Assembly (NCBI GenBank): GCA_964406185.1
Contig: CAYOQS010000002.1
Span: 146,998 to 210,997 of the forward strand
Direction: 5' to 3'
Source: an uncultured Methanosarcinales archaeon
GTDB lineage: Archaea > Nanobdellota > Nanobdellia > Woesearchaeales > UBA11576
DNA length: 64,000 nt
Made by a program: the position numbers and the translations under genes. Numbering within the stretch: position 1 is the first letter of the stretch; each line of letters opens with the position of its first letter. The notes under the pieces were generated by a model. That model saw nothing but the letters and a program-made list of their open reading frames with translations. It was not told where the DNA came from and did no database searches. Below, piece after piece: positions 1,613 through 47,978 of this stretch.

Positions 1613-4600
1613 ATGAGCGATAAAGAGAAAGATAAAGTGTTAGAGGAAATAATAATACTGGATAGGCGCGGGAAGGGCTCAACACACGATGTCCTTGAGA
1701 CCGGCATCGATGAGATGGAAAGGCATCTTGGAAGGAGCGTACCTCATTCATATTGTTCTTCAAAGACAGAGATTGACGAGAGGCTCGAGAACCTTCTTGC
1801 ATCCGAACATGACAGTAGGGTCGTGGTCGTCACGCCGATGACATACCGGGCACCTGGTGACGGGCTGACTTCGCTTTACTCCAGCTGGAGAGGCAAGGAT
1901 GTCTCTTTCGTGATCGTGGGTGACGAGGACCGCATCCGGGATGAGAAAAGGAGGAAAGAGGTGGGCAAGTACCTTGTACAATGGCAGGGTGCGGACAACA
2001 AGGATGGTGGGATCCCGCGCCTTATGTGCGCTCTCTCTTATGAGGAGGTGATCCCCAAGCTGGTCAGCTCAGGAATGTTCGTGCACGGCAAGGATGAAAA
2101 GGATACTCTGGAAAAGGAGGGGGTGGAGTCAACCCCGAGGCTTATGAACGCTTTTGTTTCTGGCTTTGCGAGCAGGGGCGGGCAGTTAGACATGAAAGGT
2201 GAGATGGAGTCTATCCTTCAGGATGTCAGGGGACTTGAGGTTTTCTATACTGATGCTGACATTGGCAGGCTCCTGAGGTCAGAAGGTTTTGCTGATTACT
2301 TCACCGCCTGGGCAGAGGAGCAGGGCGGTTTTGACAGGATGGTACTGGGTACTGAGGTGCTTGACGAGGACGGTAAGGTCACTCAGCTTATGGACCTTTC
2401 AGGGGTTATTAGGCTCATGAACAGTGTCGCTTCCAAAAGGTCGAAGATAGCAGCAGTATATGATTCTGATGATTATGTGGGTGAGATGGAGAAGCTTTCC
2501 GAAGAGGGTCTTTTTGGGACTTTCCAGGTATACCAGGACAGCACACGTGCGGTCAGGGACATGATATATGACGACGCCCAGAGGGCTGCACAGAATTCTG
2601 AACTTGGAGCATCTCCTGCATCTTCTGCGCTGCCTCCTGCGAGGATCATCGAGTTTGAGATACCGAAGAGGTTTTTTGTCGAGGATGAAGAAAAAGGATC
2701 ATCTGCGGGAGAGGAAGACGGTGGTGAGGGATCCGCTTTCAACTCTCCGCCTCCGGGCAGTGCATTGCTGTCGGGTGATGATGGTGAGGGCGTGCTGGCT
2801 TCCGCATTGCGGGGCAGGGCGACGCCGGAATCAATAAGCGCTATAATCGATGAGGACCTCACCGTAGAGGCAAAGAGGAAAAATGACCAGAGGGAAGCGT
2901 ATCGCGGACTTATGCAGAAGTACGCGGCGCATGATTCGATCAGGGATGCTGTAAGGTCTGTAGAGGAGAGCTTCGCACTCACTCTTGACCAGCAGGATTT
3001 CTACTTTGAGCTTATCGGTGTCATTGGTGACAAGGATACTGAAGAGATACCTCTTGATGAGGCTTCCACTTTGCTGCTCTCTTACCTTCCGCAGGTCATA
3101 CAGGAGCACGGCGAAGATTACCGTAGGATCGAGGGGGTGCTCAAGGCAGGGATCAGGAATTACGATGAAGGTGGCGCGGAGTTTCTTGAGGGCAGCCTGA
3201 AGCTCATAGAGAAGTATCCTGGTCTTAAGGAGGATGTTACAGGTCTTCTTGAGGGGGCCGCTTCTGCTGACATTGATACCGCGGTGGATTCTGTCCTTGA
3301 CGTGACGAAGAAGCTCGACGCTATAGATGATGATTATAACAGGGGGCTATACCTTCGTAATGTTGTTTCGGTATGCGCAAAGGAGGGAAGGTGGGATGAC
3401 ATGGGTGTTGTCGCTGATTCTGCTTACTCTGCTGTTGTCGAGCTTGAGCTGGAGAGCGAGCTTGAGGACGCGCCCGAAGTTGAGATAGGAGATGTAGATG
3501 AAGTCGAGATAGGAGATGTAGATGAAGTCGAGATAGGAAGTGCAGATGATGATCATGATTATGATGGAGGTCGTGGAAAAATGACAGATGATGATGTTTT
3601 GGCACAGGCCGGCACGGGCAATGCTGGCGGCGAAGAGGAGAAGGAGCCGAGGGACCTTGACCCTATACCTTCTGGTCCTGATGGTCTTCCAGATCCGCAC
3701 GCGGCAGATGGGGATGAGATCGATTTTGGAGACCTTGGTAGAGGTCCGCTTGCTCCACCGCCCGTGGCGCAGGTCGTCCCTGAAGATGAGCAGGATGAAG
3801 ATGAGATGTATGACGGTAAGACGCAGGATCCTATGCTTGATCCTGTAAGCGCTGATGACATGCCTGCAGAGGGTACTGATCCTTTTGTTGAGGACAGGTT
3901 GGATGAGATTGATGCAGAATCAAGGCAGCCTTACGTAGCGCCTGAAGTGCCTCCGGGACCTGCACCTTCCAGGGATGGCGGTAATGGCAGTAATGGCGGC
4001 AATGGCGGTGACCGCGGCGATGGTTCCGGCGCTGGAGACATGCGCGGGGGCATGAGCGGCGCGCGTGTCGGTCTTATCGCTCTCGGCGCGGCTGCGTTGG
4101 CTCTTGTCGGTGGTTATGCGATAAAGCACAGCATAGACCAGCATGTCCTGGTGCAGAATGCTGAAGAGCGTGCTGATGATTACATGAACAGGTTCAAGAA
4201 CCTTCCTGAGGGTGTGCAGGACTACATCAAGGCAGAGCACGGAGTGAGTATGTTCGGTGGTCCTGAGGGGAACTATGATTCTCTGAAGAGGCACGCAGGT
4301 CTTGCCGACGCTTATCTTGAGCTCGGCGGCGACGCAAGCAAGATTGAGGACATGAGCATCGATGACCTGGCTGGTGAAGTGCAGGATAAGCGCGCTTTCA
4401 ACAAGGCTGTCGACGCGAGGGTCGAGGACATTCTCGCTAGCTACGGTATCTTTGACGCGATGCAGTGTGTCGAAGAGGGCGCGGCACCGGCGGGTGCTGC
4501 ACCGGCTCCTGTTGTCGGGGACGGACCTGGTGAGCAGGACGTTCCTGCACCGGCAGTCACAAAGTCTGCCAAGAGGAGAGGTTCGACAGGCCAGTACAGG

Positions 4601-43506: not shown

Positions 43507-44448
43507 TTACTCCTTTTTCTTCTTTTTCTTGGTCTTCTTGATCTCTTTTTCAAGGTCAAGCTTTTCGAGGAGCTCTTTGTACCTGTTCCTGATCGTGACT
43601 TCTGTCACTCCGGCCACGTCCGCCACTTCTCTTTGCGTCCTCTTCTCGCCATGTATCAGTGCTGATACGTATAGCGCCGCTGCTGCTATGCCTGTGGGAC
43701 CTCTTCCTGAGGTCAGCTCAGCCTTCTGGGCCTTCTCGAGTATCTCTACCGCTTTTGACTGTGTCTCTGCTGACAGCCTGAGTGAGCTTGAGAACCTTGC
43801 GATGTAGTCTGCAGGGTTTGAGGGCAGTATCGTGATGCCCAGCTCTCTGGTGACGAACCTGTAGGTCCTTCCGACCTCTTTCTTCTCTATGTTTGATGCT
43901 TCTGAGAGCTCGTCGAGTGTCCTTGGCACTTCATGCCTCCTGCATGCTGCGTAGAGCGAGCCTGCGACCACTGATTCCATGCTCCTTCCTCTCACGAGGC
44001 CTCTCTGCACTGCGAGGGTGTATATCCTTGCAGCCTCTTCCTCGACTGATTTCGGGAGTTTGAGGTATGAGCTGACTCTTTTCAGCTCTGCTAGCGCGAG
44101 TTTCAGGTTTCTTTCGATGGCTGTGCTTATCCTGTACTGCCATTTTCTGAGCCTGAAGAACTTGTTCTTGTCTTTTGACCCGAGCTTGTACAGGTCTGCT
44201 TTCTGCCCGACTTCTGTGCCGAGTCCCTGGTCGTACTGTGTGTACGTCATGGGAGCGCCTGTCCTGCGCTTGCTTTCGGTATCTTCGCTATCGAAGTCTC
44301 TCCATTCCTGTGTGAAGTCGACCATCTTCTCTTCGACGACAAGGCCGCAGTCTTTGCATATGACTTCTCCCTTGTCCTTGTTTATGAAGAGGTTTATCCC
44401 TCCACACTCCGGGCATTTCTTGATATATTCCTGGGTCATGATCGTCAC
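43507..44448 (-). CDS. tfb: transcription initiation factor IIB (TFB)
   Basis: Zn ribbon CPECGG...CKDCG, two cyclin-fold repeats (RGRSMESVVAGSLYAACR, GPTGIAAAALYVSA). SD AAGGTGA upstream. Lys-rich tail. Confidence 0.95.
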   Translation of the reverse strand: MTIMTQEYIKKCPECGGINLFINKDKGEVICKDCGLVVEEKMVDFTQEWRDFDSEDTESKRRTGAPMTYTQYDQGLGTEVGQKADLYKLGSKDKNKFFRLRKWQYRISTAIERNLKLALAELKRVSSYLKLPKSVEEEAARIYTLAVQRGLVRGRSMESVVAGSLYAACRRHEVPRTLDELSEASNIEKKEVGRTYRFVTRELGITILPSNPADYIARFSSSLRLSAETQSKAVEILEKAQKAELTSGRGPTGIAAAALYVSALIHGEKRTQREVADVAGVTEVTIRNRYKELLEKLDLEKEIKKTKKKKKKE

Positions 44449-44884
44449 CTTGATCGTTAGATAGAGCAGTCTGCCTGCTCTTTGGAAAGATTATTTATTT
44501 ACCACCCCAACTTTTTGCGAAAAAAATTTAAACCGTATTTATTTGAGTATCATGGTTACTACAATAGATTTATATAATTGTGATGTGCTTCTATATATAA
44601 ATATTTCGGTTTTGCGTAAGCTTTATATATTTCCGTAATGGTGAAAAAAGAAGCTGTTTAATGCTTTATATGATTTCTAAAGGAAATATGGGTGCTTTTT
44701 ATTGTTTTAGGGGGTTTATTAGGTTTTTTGGGGATTATTGATGATTTAAAGAGGTTTTCAAAGCCCTAAAATTTATATTCTGCTTTCCAAAGTTCTTTTT
44801 AAAGTCCGCCTGCCTTCTGATTTCTCTGCCCTGAAGATGGTGATGTGATCCACTCCATTTTCCCATATCCCTCCAAGAGATAGT

Positions 44885-44892
44885 TTTTTAAA
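44885..44892 (+). promoter_or_regulatory. TATA-like box (TTTTTAAA) upstream of the tRNA-Ser locus
   Basis: 31 nt before GCCGACG at 44924. No comparable box precedes the inner tRNA at 45033. Confidence 0.35.
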
Positions 44893-44923
44893 CAGAAATC
44901 TTAACCGCTCTCCCGGACCATTT

Positions 44924-45009
44924 GCCGACGTCGCATACTCAAAGCTTTTGGGCTTTGGTCGCGCCGTCAGCTTCATTCAAGACTGGAGAACCAGTTTCCT
45001 GACGGATAC
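44924..45009 (+). other. Ser-type tRNA 5' portion (acceptor 5' strand, D-arm region with hairpin insertion, variable-arm homologue), no T arm
   Basis: The first 17 nt match tRNA-Ser(UGA) at 14/17. 44977-45009 is 28/33 identical to 45109-45141. Contains hairpin CAAAGC-ttttgg-GCTTTG and a 7-bp helix CCGTCAG/CTGACGG. No canonical anticodon loop found. Confidence 0.4.
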
Positions 45010-45032
45010 ACAAAAAAATCCTTTGACGCTAA

Positions 45033-45166
45033 GCCAGCGTCGCATAATCTGGTACTTCGCGCGAGCGAAGGTTTACGCGAAGCGGAAAATTGCGCTGGTC
45101 TTGAAACCTCAAGACGAGATAACCAGTTTCCTAACGGATATCCCGGTTCAAATCCGGGCGCTGGCG
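45033..45166 (+). tRNA. tRNA-Ser(UGA), class II, with two insertions (D loop ~45055-45089; after position 37, 45106-45120)
   Basis: Acceptor GCCAGCG/CGCTGGC plus G. D stem GCAT/TTGC. Anticodon stem CTGGT/ACCAG with loop CTTGAA..A. Variable arm TTTCCTAACGGATAT. T arm CCCGG-TTCAAAT-CCGGG. Confidence 0.8.
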
Positions 45167-45185
45167 TCATATAGAAGGATTTTTT

Positions 45186-45290
45186 GGTACTGGAAACTCC
45201 TACGGAGTTTCCATGTATCCCGGTTCAAAATTTAAGCTACGCTTAAATGCTCAGCAAAGCGGAGCTTTGATGAATCTCCGGGCGTCGGCG
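45186..45290 (+). other. Ser-type tRNA 3' portion: perfect 10-bp hairpin, T arm split by a 47-nt insertion, 3' acceptor strand
   Basis: TGGAAACTCC-tac-GGAGTTTCCA (45191-45213). CCCGG TTCAAA [45230-45276] T CCGGG. CGTCGGC+G is the exact complement of GCCGACG at 44924. Confidence 0.45.
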
Positions 45291-45326
45291 TAACAAGCGT
45301 AAGCGGGTGGAGTTGGCGGACGGGCC
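45278..45326 (+). repeat. direct repeat R1 (begins in the tRNA 3' end)
   Basis: The 49 nt CCGGGCGTCGGCGTAACAAGCGTAAGCGGGTGGAGTTGGCGGACGGGCC recur at 46119-46167 with 3 mismatches. Confidence 0.9.
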
Positions 45327-45388
45327 AGCGCCCGAAGGGGGTAAGCGTGTCCGGGTGGAGGGTTTAGTTAGAAAAGAAAGTCCTGCTA

Positions 45389-45799
45389 TTATTTGCTCTT
45401 CAATATCTCGACTACTTCTTGTGTCTGGTATATCTTAACAGCATCCTGATCCTTCAATCGTTTATCGTTCGACCAGATTCCGCAATTCAATTTCATCGCC
45501 AATGCTAAATACATCGCGTCTTTTTCATCGGGAGAAATTAGTTTGGCTCGACCCGATAATTGAGCAGTTTCCTCTTTTGGAATGGTTGAGATAACTTCTT
45601 TTAGGCAATGCATGATTTCAATAAAATTCTCTCGTGTCCTTCCGGTCTTTTGCAGTATTAAATCTTCATATTTCATGAATTCTGTAATCAAGAATTCGGG
45701 AGCGTACAACTTTAAGTTCTCGTCGAACAACAATTCAGAAGTATAACTGTCTTTGATCAATGCGGCGAACAGGATATTTGCATCAAGAACAAGTTCCAT
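45389..45799 (-). CDS. vapC: PIN-domain toxin (VapC-like)
   Basis: MELVLDANILFAA (first acidic residue), later acidic residues, 136 aa. Abuts the upstream antitoxin gene. Confidence 0.8.
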   Translation of the reverse strand: MELVLDANILFAALIKDSYTSELLFDENLKLYAPEFLITEFMKYEDLILQKTGRTRENFIEIMHCLKEVISTIPKEETAQLSGRAKLISPDEKDAMYLALAMKLNCGIWSNDKRLKDQDAVKIYQTQEVVEILKSK

Positions 45800-45800
45800 C

Positions 45801-46025
45801 TTAATTATTGTTATATCTCTTTGCAGCTTTGGCGCTTAGTTCTCTGCCTAGCTTAAGAGCATCTTCTTCTGTAAACTCGCTGTCTTTGGTAAACTTCTTG
45901 AACTTCTCCATCATCTCAAGCTTTCTTTTGATTGCTTCTCTTGCTACAGCACTCCAGTTAAGTTCGGGAAATTTGTCCATGTCCTGCTTCATGTTTTCAG
46001 GTACTGATAGGGTTATACTTACCAT
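45801..46025 (-). CDS. vapB: antitoxin (VapB-like)
   Basis: 74 aa. MVSITLSVPENMKQDMDKF...AREAIKRKLE. Operon partner of the PIN gene. AT-rich promoter region 46026-46100. Confidence 0.6.
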   Translation of the reverse strand: MVSITLSVPENMKQDMDKFPELNWSAVAREAIKRKLEMMEKFKKFTKDSEFTEEDALKLGRELSAKAAKRYNNN

Positions 46026-46118
46026 ATTATCACCTTATGTGTATTACGTTTAATATGTATAATATGTTTATATATTTAAAGGTTTTGTTTAGCCATGCCT
46101 GATCCGTGCTGCTCGTGT

Positions 46119-46167
46119 CCGGGCGTCGGCGTAACGAGTGTAAGCGGGTGGAGCTGGCGGACGGGCC
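46119..46167 (+). repeat. direct repeat R2
   Basis: 46/49 identity to R1. Preceded by CTCGTGT, so 46112-46131 (CTCGTGTCCGGGCGTCGGCG) also repeats at 46186-46205. Confidence 0.9.
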
Positions 46168-46185
46168 CAGAGCATCTATGATGCT

Positions 46186-46205
46186 CTCGTGTCCGGGCGT
46201 CGGTG
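46186..46205 (+). repeat. short direct repeat R3 (tRNA 3'-end-like)
   Basis: CTCGTGTCCGGGCGTCGGTG, 19/20 identical to 46112-46131. Confidence 0.85.
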
Positions 46206-46216
46206 TTTTTATCCTC

Positions 46217-46567
46217 TCACATCCTCTCCATCCCGAATGACTTGAGCACATCCTTTATCTCATCGATCACTTTCTGTTGGTCTTTCTTTTCGGACATCCT
46301 GACGAATTTTATCAGAAGATGGGCTAGTTCATCTTCTGATGCGAACTTGAGCATGTGTCCGTCTGTGATGAAATAGAAGCGGTACTTGCCATGCTTCAGC
46401 TCTTTTATTGCTACTCCGCCGACATTTGCCAGGCTCTTTCCTTTCTTCGGGTGTCTCTCAAGAGACTTTAGTAGAAGGAATATCTTCCCTGATCCGCCTT
46501 TGAACCTGCGGATTACCTCCTTCACCAGGAGGTCAGTTATTATGACTCTGGCCATTTTTCTTGGCAT
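46217..46567 (-). CDS. RelE/ParE-like toxin (tentative)
   Basis: 116 aa. KELKHGKYRFYFITDG resembles the RelE/HigB-type core. Overlaps the upstream small antitoxin ORF by 35 nt as called, so the start is uncertain. Confidence 0.45.
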   Translation of the reverse strand: MPRKMARVIITDLLVKEVIRRFKGGSGKIFLLLKSLERHPKKGKSLANVGGVAIKELKHGKYRFYFITDGHMLKFASEDELAHLLIKFVRMSEKKDQQKVIDEIKDVLKSFGMERM

Positions 46568-46745
46568 AGGCTATCGCGTCATCTATGCTTACAGAGTCTG
46601 ATTCGTCGTACAGGTAGTCCCGCAGAAGCTGCTTGTGTGCGATCTCATACATCTTTCGTATGACATCTTCATATGAGTCGCCCGCCCTGCCGAGGTTGCG
46701 CAGCTTATCCTTCAGCTCGTTTGATATTGCTATTGTGGTTGCCAT
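46533..46745 (-). CDS. small antitoxin-like protein
   Basis: 70 aa. MATTIAISNELKDKLRNLGRAGDSYEDVIRKMYE (beta strand then helices). Positioned upstream of the toxin-like ORF. Confidence 0.5.
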   Translation of the reverse strand: MATTIAISNELKDKLRNLGRAGDSYEDVIRKMYEIAHKQLLRDYLYDESDSVSIDDAIAYAKKNGQSHNN

Positions 46746-46805
46746 ATATCATATAAGTTCTATAGAATATATAAATTTTTCTGTCTGACAGGGCGCAAAG
46801 CGTCT

Positions 46806-47978
46806 TTATGCTTGCTCGAACTCTTTCAATTGCTCTTCATAGCCTTCTTTTTCCAGGTCTTCTTTGGGTATGAACCGCAGCGATGCTGAGTTTATGCAGT
46901 ACCTGAGTCCTGTCGGTTCAGGCCCGTCATGGAACACGTGTCCGAGGTGTGAGTCCGCGTGCGCGCTCCTGACTTCTGTCCTTGTGCCGAAAAGTCCTGG
47001 GTCTTCTTTTTCAACTATGTTTGTGGGTTCGAGCGGTCTTGTGAAGCTCGGCCATCCTGTGCCTGACTTGAACTTGTCTTTTGAGCTGAACAGCACCTCT
47101 CCTGATACTATGTCCACGTATATGCCTTCTTCGTAGTTGTCCCAGTATTTGTTCTTGAACGGGGGCTCTGTGGCTTCGTTCTGTGTGACGTCGCACTGCA
47201 GCTTTGTGAGGTTCTTTTTGGCCTCTGCGTACTTGTCTTCCTGTGCTGCTGTCTCTTCTTCCTCTTCTTCTGTCAGGTCTGTCTCGTCGCCCCAGGTATT
47301 TTCTTTGAATGCTTTCCTTCCTGATCCGAGAGCGTAAAGCGCGTATCTGGCCTTGTGCTTCTCCCAGTAGTCCTGATGGTATTCTTCTGCCATGTAGAAC
47401 TCTTCTGCCTGTTTTATCTCTGTGGCTATTGGCTTGTCGAACTTGCCTGACATGTGCAGTTCTCTCTTGCTCTCTTCTGCGAGTCTTTTCTGCTTTTCAT
47501 CATGGTAGAATATCGCTGTCCTGTACTGCGGTCCCCTGTCTGCGAACTGCCCTTCTTCGTCGGTGGGGTCTATCTGCCTCCAGAATGTGTTGAGCAGGTC
47601 AGTATAGCTTATCTTTTCAGGGTCATACTTCATCTGTACCGCTTCGTAATGTCCTGTCGTGCCTGTGCTGACTTCTTTGTATGTAGGGTCTGGCTTGTCC
47701 CCTCCGGTGTAGCCTGACACCACGTCGGTGACGCCTTCGATGCCTTCAAACGCTTTTTCCATGCACCAGAAGCATCCTCCTGCGAACGTGGCTTTTTTCA
47801 TACCCTGATTGTCTTCTGGTCTTTCCATGGGTTCCGCCTCCTCTGGCATGGGCGCTTCCGCCATCGCGTCTTCCTGTGTGGTGATGCTGTCATGTCTGCT
47901 TTGCGTATCTGCCGCGCATCCTGAGAGCATAAGGATTGAAGCGATCATGATCAGGTGTAAGATTTTCACCGCTTTCAT
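46806..47978 (-). CDS. msrAB: bifunctional methionine sulfoxide reductase MsrA-MsrB, lipoprotein-type signal
   Basis: GGCFWCME (MsrA). [16 protein letters not shown] and GHVF (MsrB). N-terminal [11 protein letters not shown] lipobox. Confidence 0.9.

Follow-up and report, generated by a model that had tools for sequence, protein, structure and literature searches.

A vapBC operon between tRNA-derived repeats and a family of hairpin modules at tRNA ends in an uncultured archaeon

It is still an open matter how archaeal tRNA genes acquire interruptions, become split and end up among fragments, and the favoured idea, that mobile elements integrate at tRNA termini, has few natural cases to support it. 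The question is raised by a locus in the genome of an uncultured archaeon assigned by GTDB to the Woesearchaeales (UBA11576; assembly GCA_964406185.1), where two toxin-antitoxin (TA) gene pairs lie downstream of tRNA-Ser sequences, among repeated copies of a tRNA 3' end. The stretch that was analysed, referred to throughout as the window, is 64,000 nucleotides (nt) long and corresponds to C2:146998-210997 in an assembly of 1.52 Mb, 19 contigs and 50% GC; coordinates without a contig label are window positions. A first-pass annotation, made from the letters alone, had read the locus as an array of att-like sites into which TA cassettes were serially inserted. How, then, did the TA operons come to lie there? 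On balance we think it probable that the array consists of two nested insertions beside an old tRNA-Ser/TA neighbourhood, and not of three integrase att sites. The comparisons drew on 12 genomes of the genus and on an outgroup scan of 200 other genomes of the order; contigs of the genome itself are labelled C, the other genomes of the genus G001-G011, and compared loci or contigs carry L-numbers.

Copies of a tRNA 3' end and the vapBC operon between them

The repeated element is a 14-mer, TCCGGGCGTCGGCG, which recurs where the first-pass annotation had placed it: exactly at 45277-45290 (copy 1) and 46118-46131 (copy 2), and with one mismatch, as TCCGGGCGTCGGTG, at 46192-46205 (copy 3). A fourth, diverged copy, TCCGGGTGGAGGGT, lies at 45350-45363. 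The window contains six matches with at most two mismatches against 0.40 expected, a number reached in 0 of 100 shuffles; of the three beyond copies 1 to 3, two mark the 3' ends of genuine tRNA-Ser genes (45153 and 51955) and one is due to chance. The long direct repeat reported for the first two copies is likewise present and extends to 50 nt (45277-45326 on the plus strand versus 46118-46167), with 47 of 50 positions identical and mismatches at 45295, 45298 and 45313. It is composed of 14 tRNA-derived nt and 36 nt of non-tRNA module loop, the left copy reading as 14-mer, loop and complement of the 14-mer. A genome-wide search for further copies, which had been proposed as a check, yielded one, 88-90% identical to the 50-mer, at C2:140461-140510, within a paralogous locus that we call P. 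Copies 2 and 3 are separated by 60 nt (46132-46191), instead of the 54 nt first given, and the first 36 nt of this interval fall within the 50-nt repeat.

The sequence that accompanies these copies belongs to what we call X modules, which are found at tRNA 3' ends, enclose no gene and each repeat the last ~14 nt of their own tRNA. An X module is composed, in order, of the tRNA's last 14 nt (T-loop nt 60 to the discriminator), a loop, the complement of nt 60-69, CC, a conserved hairpin, G, an exact second 14-mer and an oligo-T run. The hairpin is of type a (AGCGCC-loop-GGGG-AAAGCGYG) or type b (CAGAGCATC-TAT-GATGCTCTC-GTG), and both types are present here. The X-a hairpin unit (45309-45363, plus strand) is made up of the complement of the 14-mer, the core AGCGCCCGAAGGGGGTAAGCGTG (45327-45349) and the terminal TCCGGGTGGAGGGT; taken from copy 1 to 45363 it scores 62 bits (E 2e-14) against R1, a covariance model of the X unit. 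The X-b module (46118-46205, plus strand) runs from copy 2 through loop and complement (46132-46167) and the hairpin with its GTG (46168-46191) to copy 3; it matches R1 at 46150-46205 (E 6.5e-5) and has a fold z of -2.3. Pairing within the b hairpin is kept despite changes, as CAGAACAGC/GCTGTTCTC in G010:C8 and as CAGAGCC/GGCTCTC in L170.

Two loci carry the X-b module uninterrupted. Both P (C2:140395-140560) and L170 pass directly from ..GGCGGACGGGCC into CAGAGC.., and P aligns unbroken with 45210-45326 joined to 46168-46230; the 841 bp of 45327-46167 are therefore an insertion, with the 50-nt repeat on either side. Empty sites in relatives, a search for which had been proposed as a check, are accordingly represented by L170, and also by the paralog. 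The order in P is a T-arm half, a 47-nt insert, the Ser-type 14-mer, 36 nt, the b hairpin, CGTG, the 14-mer of another tRNA and T10. L170 is arranged as TFB, a Trm112-like gene, promoter, a Y module (a 5' counterpart of X, described below), tRNA-Ser(UGA), 14-mer, 36 nt, b hairpin, 14-mer, a T-arm remnant of an outer tRNA and the second TA pair; it has no vapBC, and its relatedness to the window is 82% at the nucleotide level in TFB and 92.6% in the second TA pair.

From left to right the insertion comprises the X-a core hairpin, the terminal repeat, a flank, vapC, vapB, the vapB promoter, an X-type leader and the right 50-nt repeat. The operon lies between copies 1 and 2, as first described. 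On the minus strand, vapC (45389-45799) encodes a PIN_2 toxin of 136 amino acids (PF10130, E 2.9e-25) and is separated by a 1-nt gap from vapB (45801-46025), whose 74-amino-acid product has a sub-threshold match to the VapB family NF050799; an AT-rich vapB promoter/operator occupies 46026-46087. The nearest VapC homologs are partnered by RHH_12 proteins. The operon has a GC content of 38% versus 51% for the genome, homologs of vapC share at most 74% amino acid identity and lie in unrelated contexts, and no exact VapC is on record elsewhere. No X module was seen near the vapBC homologs of G002, G005 and G011 or beside the two nearest metagenomic homologs.

What surrounds the operon within the insertion resembles a separate class of X. 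Stand-alone, promoter-driven copies are found in the genome itself (C1:180910-181028) and in G002:C30, G008:C10 and G002:C5. The X-a core of the window, ~20 nt of flank and the terminal TCCGGGTGGAGGGT are homologous to such a copy (C1:180985-181050) and not to tRNA, and the leader (46088-46117, plus strand), whose TATA box TTTAGCCATGCCTGATCCGTGCTGCTCGTG is degenerate, can be aligned to those of stand-alone X genes, which read TTTAAATAGCTCATCCGGGCGTG (TTTAGCCATGCCTGATCCG.. in the insertion versus TTTAAATAGCTCATCCG.. in the latter). When the ends of the insertion are joined, they form a complete stand-alone X-a gene adjoining vapBC; four stand-alone X genes are colinear with it over the whole length between TATA box and flank. 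The operon exactly fills the interval between X-a flank and X leader. Of the proposed att-like array, one part holds, in that vapBC sits in a true insertion between direct repeats that start with a tRNA-derived 14-mer; the other does not, as copies 2 and 3 are the repeats of a single, cargo-less hairpin module.

The second TA pair follows copy 3, as had been noted, and is encoded on the minus strand by a gene for a 116-amino-acid partner protein of no family (46217-46567) and one for an antitoxin-like RHH protein (46533-46745). Together with copy 3, a T-run (46206-46210) and a promoter reaching to ..TCTGACAG, it forms a conserved block (46192-46791). Close homologs of the 116-amino-acid protein (89-93% amino acid identity) occur in three other contexts, namely L170, L171 and L172, where the identity of the block is 92.6%, 88.6% and 88%, respectively. 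In L171 an intact, three-intron tRNA-Ser(GGA) with the 14-mer is followed by the T-run and, after ~40 nt, by the TA pair; in L172, which has a ferredoxin-like open reading frame on the left, homology with the window starts at 46193, the second base of copy 3. These comparisons indicate that copy 3, T-run and second TA pair travel as one block, the far side of which has no repeat. Copy 3 is best read, from these alignments, as the original tRNA-Ser 3' end and not as a border made by the arrival of the second TA pair. The identity of the TA block, higher than that of TFB, suggests recent exchange, and therefore that the region downstream of tRNA-Ser is a hot spot, a recurrent landing place for TA genes. 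That element of the serial-insertion proposal survives, whereas the second pair, without a far repeat and within an older block shared with copy 3, is not supported as an inserted cassette. A general linkage of the second TA family to tRNA genes was not seen, members at ~65% identity lying between RPA-like and large genes. A paralog of the pair, encoding proteins of 112 and 74 amino acids and ~75% identical in nucleotides over its 3' end, is found at C9:15786-16345.

A history can be proposed from these comparisons. Comparison shows the original state to have been a tRNA-Ser 3' end (now copy 3), its oligo-T terminator and the second TA pair. In a first insertion, likewise evident from comparison, an X-b module came to lie at tRNA position 59/60-73, duplicating the last 14 nt. 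The 841-bp unit, the geometry of which is plain from the repeats, may then have entered by one reciprocal, Campbell-type crossover in the first 50 nt of the resident module. The incoming unit would have been a small circle of only a stand-alone-type X-a gene and the low-GC vapBC operon, and the crossover between this circle and the resident X-b would have generated the 50-nt repeat that now flanks vapBC. Either host homologous recombination acting on 50 bp or a recombinase recognising the X hairpin might have mediated the step. The outer tRNA at the locus, considered below, had already lost its anticodon half, and the locus was therefore free to accumulate insertions; TA genes may simply be the type of cargo that persists there.

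The same arrangement could also have been built by local duplication and an unrelated insertion, with unequal crossing-over producing tandem X-a and X-b modules, vapBC entering the spacer later by illegitimate recombination, and the 50-nt repeat reflecting paralogy. Tandem module arrays do exist (two 54-nt units at C1:180910-181028, two units in G010:C82 and at least four Y units in G011:C8), TA operons are known to move without recognisable sites, and the vapBC homologs are in unrelated contexts. However, this route requires two hybrid units, a tRNA-linked unit with a stand-alone terminus and flank, and a stand-alone leader with a b core, whereas the crossover model requires just two pure parental types, and the pure b-type resident form is seen in P and L170. 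The exact fit of vapBC between X-a flank and X leader also argues against it, and we regard local duplication as improbable.

Several points nonetheless weigh against the nested-insertion history. Only one cargo-bearing module was found, so that capture mediated by X may not be general, and two metagenome scans, one with the 36-mer of the repeat and one with the X-a core, returned 0 matches. The incoming X-a, as reconstructed, has unequal flanking repeats (TCCGGGCGTCGGCG versus TCCGGGTGGAGGGT), unlike the other stand-alone X genes. In L170 the X-b module stands behind the inner and not the outer tRNA, making that locus a close homolog and not a strict positional ortholog. Finally, the history does not account for how the modules arise, nor for the complement of its own target that each contains.

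X and Y modules at tRNA ends

X modules are linked to many tRNA genes. In the genome itself they stand behind tRNA-Glu(CUC) (C8:21754-21830) and tRNA-Gly(CCC) (C11:38987-39083); elsewhere in the genus they are found behind tRNA-Ser(CGA) and tRNA-Ser(GGA) in G005, behind tRNA-Ser(UGA) in G004, and behind tRNA-Gly and other tRNAs in G001, G004, G005 and G010. The tRNA-Phe gene also has a 14-nt duplication behind it, but with different hairpins. Model R1 finds matches in 8 of the 12 genus genomes versus 1 of the 200 others of the order. At the tRNA-Glu locus the module is present on C8 and absent from G011, G004 and G005; the gene downstream is the same in G011 and G004, and their T-rich flank is similar. 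X thus amounts to a clean insertion or deletion with a 14-nt duplication. Judged from these sequence comparisons, X modules are lineage-specific and come and go between close genomes. The first-pass annotation had allowed that its reading would fall if the repeat were a dispersed element unrelated to tRNA ends: it does belong to a dispersed family, which counts against that reading, yet the family is tied to tRNA ends, which counts in its favour.

The helix between complement and 14-mer shows compensatory changes, on both sides, at 5 of 8 pairs, with 87% of cells pairing versus 73% in shuffles, and folding indicates that the complement is able to pair with either copy of the 14-mer. Duplication lengths range from 12 to 26 nt across modules. 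In G001:C25 (L130) the duplication extends 12 nt into the trailer, and in G010:C82 (L129) it begins at nt 69, limits that favour duplication at the DNA level over a second exon. The orthologous tRNA-Gly(UCC) genes of G001:C47 (L137) and G005:C17 (L024) differ by a compensatory change in the acceptor stem, from C5-G68 to U5-A68, that is mirrored in the second 14-mer downstream, at a site outside the X helix, which suggests gene conversion or selection on the second copy.

The stand-alone X at C1:180910-181028 is built of two 54-nt units in tandem, and its place beside a helicase-like gene is conserved in three genomes (with G002:C30 and G008:C10); stand-alone X has the look of a conserved small RNA gene. 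The X-a core hairpin, CCAGCGCC-UACG-GGGAAAGCGYG, is also found inside other structured RNAs of ~190-240 nt with long closing helices (C13:12400-12900, C9:15640-15760, L131, L136, L143, L145 and L146; motifs GCCUAGCGAG and CAACGAGCGCAGUGG). None of these larger RNAs matches an Rfam family, and they differ from RNase P and signal recognition particle RNA, both of which are on C3. Readings of the X core as a K-turn or as a bulge-helix-bulge (BHB) were rejected by inspection. Rfam gave no relevant match at E <= 1 over 44000-47500 and nothing at E <= 0.1 for nine loci with the core hairpin, four of them X modules; with no description found in literature searches either, X and Y modules appear to be undescribed.

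Y modules are the mirror of X at tRNA 5' ends, being composed of a copy of tRNA nt 1-14, a hairpin (CUCAAAGCC-loop-GGCUUUGG) and a complement of nt 1-11. The Y module of the window (44924-44975, plus strand; fold z of -3.56) begins with its copy of nt 1-14, GCCGACGTCGCATA (44924-44937), continues with the hairpin CTCAAAGC..GCTTTGG (44938-44958) and ends with an imperfect complement of nt 1-11 (44961-44971). Others, each with the 5' end of its own tRNA and with compensatory hairpin changes among them, are found in G004:C121, G003:C3, L170 and G011:C8, the last with at least four tandem units.

Are there enzymes in these genomes that could move such modules? The statement that no integrase lies in the window is borne out, as the only matches to PF00589 are at C11:551-1024 and C7:1343-2518, with none on contig C2. 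The two tyrosine recombinases are a XerA-like protein on C11 and a protein of 392 amino acids on C7, the sole non-Xer one. The latter is part of an arrangement (C7:1343-2800, minus strand) of tRNA-Gly(GCC), a 72-nt hairpin-rich spacer, a second copy of the tRNA's last 12 nt and the recombinase gene, beyond which the element runs off the contig end; the 12-mer has no third copy in the assembly. This case shows that integrase-type insertion at tRNA ends does occur in this genome. But the enzyme is not on the contig of the array and is absent from all 11 other genus genomes, 7 of which carry X; a linked integrase was accordingly rejected. Cas1 (PF01867) is absent from all 12 genus genomes, and with it the casposon was rejected as a candidate. 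In L029, from another genus, an integrase-like N-terminal fragment is found 3' of the tRNA-Ser(UGA) next to TFB (~2500-3800, reverse strand), bracketed by direct repeats of ~40 nt (GAGCGCGGCATATATT..ACTTATTAC).

These observations bear on a classical form of serial integration, in which a tyrosine integrase targeting tRNA-Ser would have used the 14-mers as att cores, and its elements would have decayed to TA cassettes and to ~60-nt X and Y remnants. The same junction nucleotide (59/60-61) recurs in T-loop introns, in X modules, in P and in L172, where DNA bearing an open reading frame abuts a solo 13-mer; the C7 recombinase directly follows a duplicated tRNA 12-mer, and the L029 fragment follows a tRNA-Ser(UGA). 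Moreover, archaeal tRNAs are known to serve as attachment sites at both their 5' and 3' termini, and an intron may be brought in along with attP (PMC3293823). Against this, the contig is without an integrase and the C7 enzyme is missing from the other X-bearing genomes. Repeats and complements specific to each tRNA would call for numerous specificities, with decay ending each time in the same 40-60 nt; in no genome is cargo found between copies 2 and 3, and the second TA pair is without a distal repeat. We consider serial integration of this kind distinctly unlikely.

A bolder proposal, which we hold possible but doubtful, is that X and Y represent new, enzyme-less small mobile or recombinogenic elements of tRNA ends, marked by a stem that replicates their own target and by a duplication of 12-26 nt. 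They might provide attC-like docking sites at which mini-circles, the 841-bp X-a/vapBC unit among them, join the chromosome, and could seed T-loop and D-loop introns, as in P, where a complete block of intron, 14-mer and X occupies position 59/60 of another tRNA.

tRNA-Ser genes of the locus

The tRNA that owns copy 1 is not a working gene. Even when introns are permitted, ARAGORN detects only 16 tRNAs over the entire 1.5 Mb and none in the region of interest; most tRNA genes have insertions in the D loop, the T loop or both, at non-canonical interruption positions. The functional gene of the locus is an inner tRNA-Ser(UGA) (45033-45166, plus strand), which is recognisable by eye and which ARAGORN calls as tRNA-Ser(tga) once its two introns, one in the D loop (45055-45090) and one canonical (45106-45120), are spliced out; it is bracketed by an inverted repeat (45010-45039 / 45159-45188). 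The outer tRNA-Ser, the owner of the 14-mer, survives as pieces: GCCGACG.. at 44924, a T-arm 5' half at 45218-45229, a 47-nt T-loop (59/60) intron at 45230-45276 and copy 1, the last three forming its dead 3' part (45218-45290, plus strand). A further remnant (44977-45008, plus strand), an 88% direct repeat of 45109-45140, holds the tail of the canonical intron, the 3' strand of the anticodon stem and the variable arm, and is colinear with the intact outer tRNA of G011:C7. The D-arm 3' strand and anticodon arm are absent or replaced, and in-silico splicing yields no tRNA by ARAGORN. The Ser-type tRNA to which copy 1 had been assigned is hence inactive, a dead copy, and the working gene is the separate inner tRNA-Ser(UGA).

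The intact nesting is seen in G011:C7 (L013, 580-1120), where both genes are intact, whereas in the window (44924-45290) the outer one is degraded. There a complete tRNA-Ser(UGA) lies inside an insertion bounded by inverted repeats, between the variable arm and T stem of an outer gene whose spliced form is also tRNA-Ser(UGA); this version of the locus has neither X nor TA genes. The last 76 nt of the three-intron tRNA-Ser(GGA) of L171, including the 47-nt T-loop intron, match 45216-45291 at 75 of 76 positions, and the 47-nt insert itself is identical in that intact gene. By inspection, the insert in the window (45230-45276) has the features of a BHB, two bulges of 3 nt on either side of a 4-bp helix, with the T stem, a UUCA/UGAA helix and bulges AA|A and UC|U. 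Nearly the same 47-nt intron occupies the T loop (59/60) of Leu, Ser and other tRNA genes in several genomes (L016, L017, L018, L019 and L171). At C2:140162-140560, ~6.5 kb before the window, and in G009:C126 (L016), tRNA-Leu is followed by hairpins and then by a duplicated tRNA 3' fragment with the 47-nt T-loop insert; the insert of the former also holds the Ser-type 14-mer and X-b, which gives the impression that the entire block was copied into a different tRNA's T loop.

Such an intron raises the thought that the 14-mers are exons, that is, alternative 3' ends of a T-loop-interrupted or split tRNA-Ser, so that everything from 45229 to copy 3, including vapBC, would be a giant intron. Every repeat begins exactly at the 59/60 intron position, a terminator follows copy 3, and in P the upstream T stem fits the last 14-mer only; splicing endonucleases of broad specificity are present in DPANN archaea (PMC3239211). 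The outer tRNA, however, has no anticodon arm, and by inspection no BHB is formed at the X/14-mer 3' junction, since both bulges (CCA and GAAA) lie 5' of the 4-bp GCGC/GCGY helix on their strands and UUCA is unpairable with the required intron nucleotides. The repeats in L130 and L129, reaching into the trailer or beginning at nt 69, fit DNA duplication instead, and a 5' half for P was not found. This RNA-level explanation seems to us very unlikely indeed. A split or trans-spliced tRNA was ruled out on related grounds, the supposed 5' half at 44924 being the Y module and P being without a findable 5' half.

Upstream, a TATA-like box, TTTTTTAAAC (44884-44893, plus strand), is judged from its position to be the promoter of the tRNA-Ser locus, and a AACTTTTTAAACAGAAATC.. 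box also precedes tRNA-Ser(UGA) in L029, L015 and L170. The TFB gene (43507-44448, minus strand) has its nearest relatives in metagenome-assembled genomes of Woesearchaeota/Nanoarchaeota, and the synteny of TFB with tRNA-Ser(UGA) is kept in other genera. The region calls for caution in annotation: beside a single working tRNA and a single dead one it contains several tRNA-end decoys, which standard finders miss.

Comparison with known systems

Integron gene cassettes consist of an open reading frame and a folded attC site, and in chromosomal arrays they often carry TA operons. The vapBC unit resembles them as a sub-kilobase, putatively circular unit with one operon and one imperfect-palindrome site, which would have inserted by recombination at that site, and in its TA cargo. 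Unlike in integrons, there is no IntI, attI or Pc here, only one site-bounded cassette is seen, and the stems are tRNA-specific. The attC cores R'' and R' (RYYYAAC / GTTRRRY) are absent by inspection from 45277-45363 and 46118-46205, where the nearest sequences, GCGTAAC and GTTGGCG, break the consensus.

Casposons depend on Cas1 and generate target duplications of 14-15 bp, frequently at the 3' ends of tRNA genes. They share with the present modules a 14-nt duplication of the target at such ends, here those of tRNA-Glu, -Gly and -Ser, whereas Cas1, terminal inverted repeats and a polymerase are all lacking here and the duplication varies from 12 to 26 nt. The cargo itself is that of a type II VapBC system, with a PIN_2 toxin preceded by a small RHH-type antitoxin, low GC, patchy context and a predicted TA activity; the landing site alone is unusual, and the proteins are ordinary.

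The transposition of non-canonical introns between archaeal tRNA genes has been reviewed (PMC4090602, PMC4033280). The genus conforms to this picture with insertions at T-loop position 59/60 and in the D loop, and with a 47-nt intron common to Ser, Leu and other tRNAs, and the hairpins of X and Y reuse intron-like words. Unlike introns, however, X and Y are external to the mature tRNA, repeat the 14 nt at its terminus and form no bulge-helix-bulge.

In this genus small modules are dense and polymorphic, and at both tRNA ends they duplicate precisely the 14 terminal nt. Their duplications share a boundary with the T-loop intron position, and one module appears to have captured a TA operon without a linked integrase. 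The link between recombination at tRNA ends, intron gain and gene capture becomes testable in DPANN archaea.

The tRNA-disruption model of Sugahara et al. (2012) comprises integration at tRNA termini, intron import and the scattering of fragments (PMC3293823). Together with the elements mobilised by SSV-type and pNOB8-type integrases, it provides the nearest comparison: direct repeats of a tRNA terminus bound the accessory DNA, the locus gathers tRNA fragments and introns, uninterrupted sites are found in relatives, and both 5' and 3' termini are involved. Flanking repeats that contain the tRNA 3' part are found for the vapBC unit only, not for the second TA pair, and no functional tRNA is regenerated, as the outer pieces give none in ARAGORN. 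In contrast to those elements, there is no linked integrase, the repeats contain 12-16 nt of tRNA followed by module sequence instead of 40-60 nt of tRNA, and the usual 'element' is a hairpin of 40-60 nt with a complement of its own target, present at many tRNAs. Integration at tRNA termini is the closest concept, and the present finding is a variant of tRNA-linked insertion, not a classical integrase att array.

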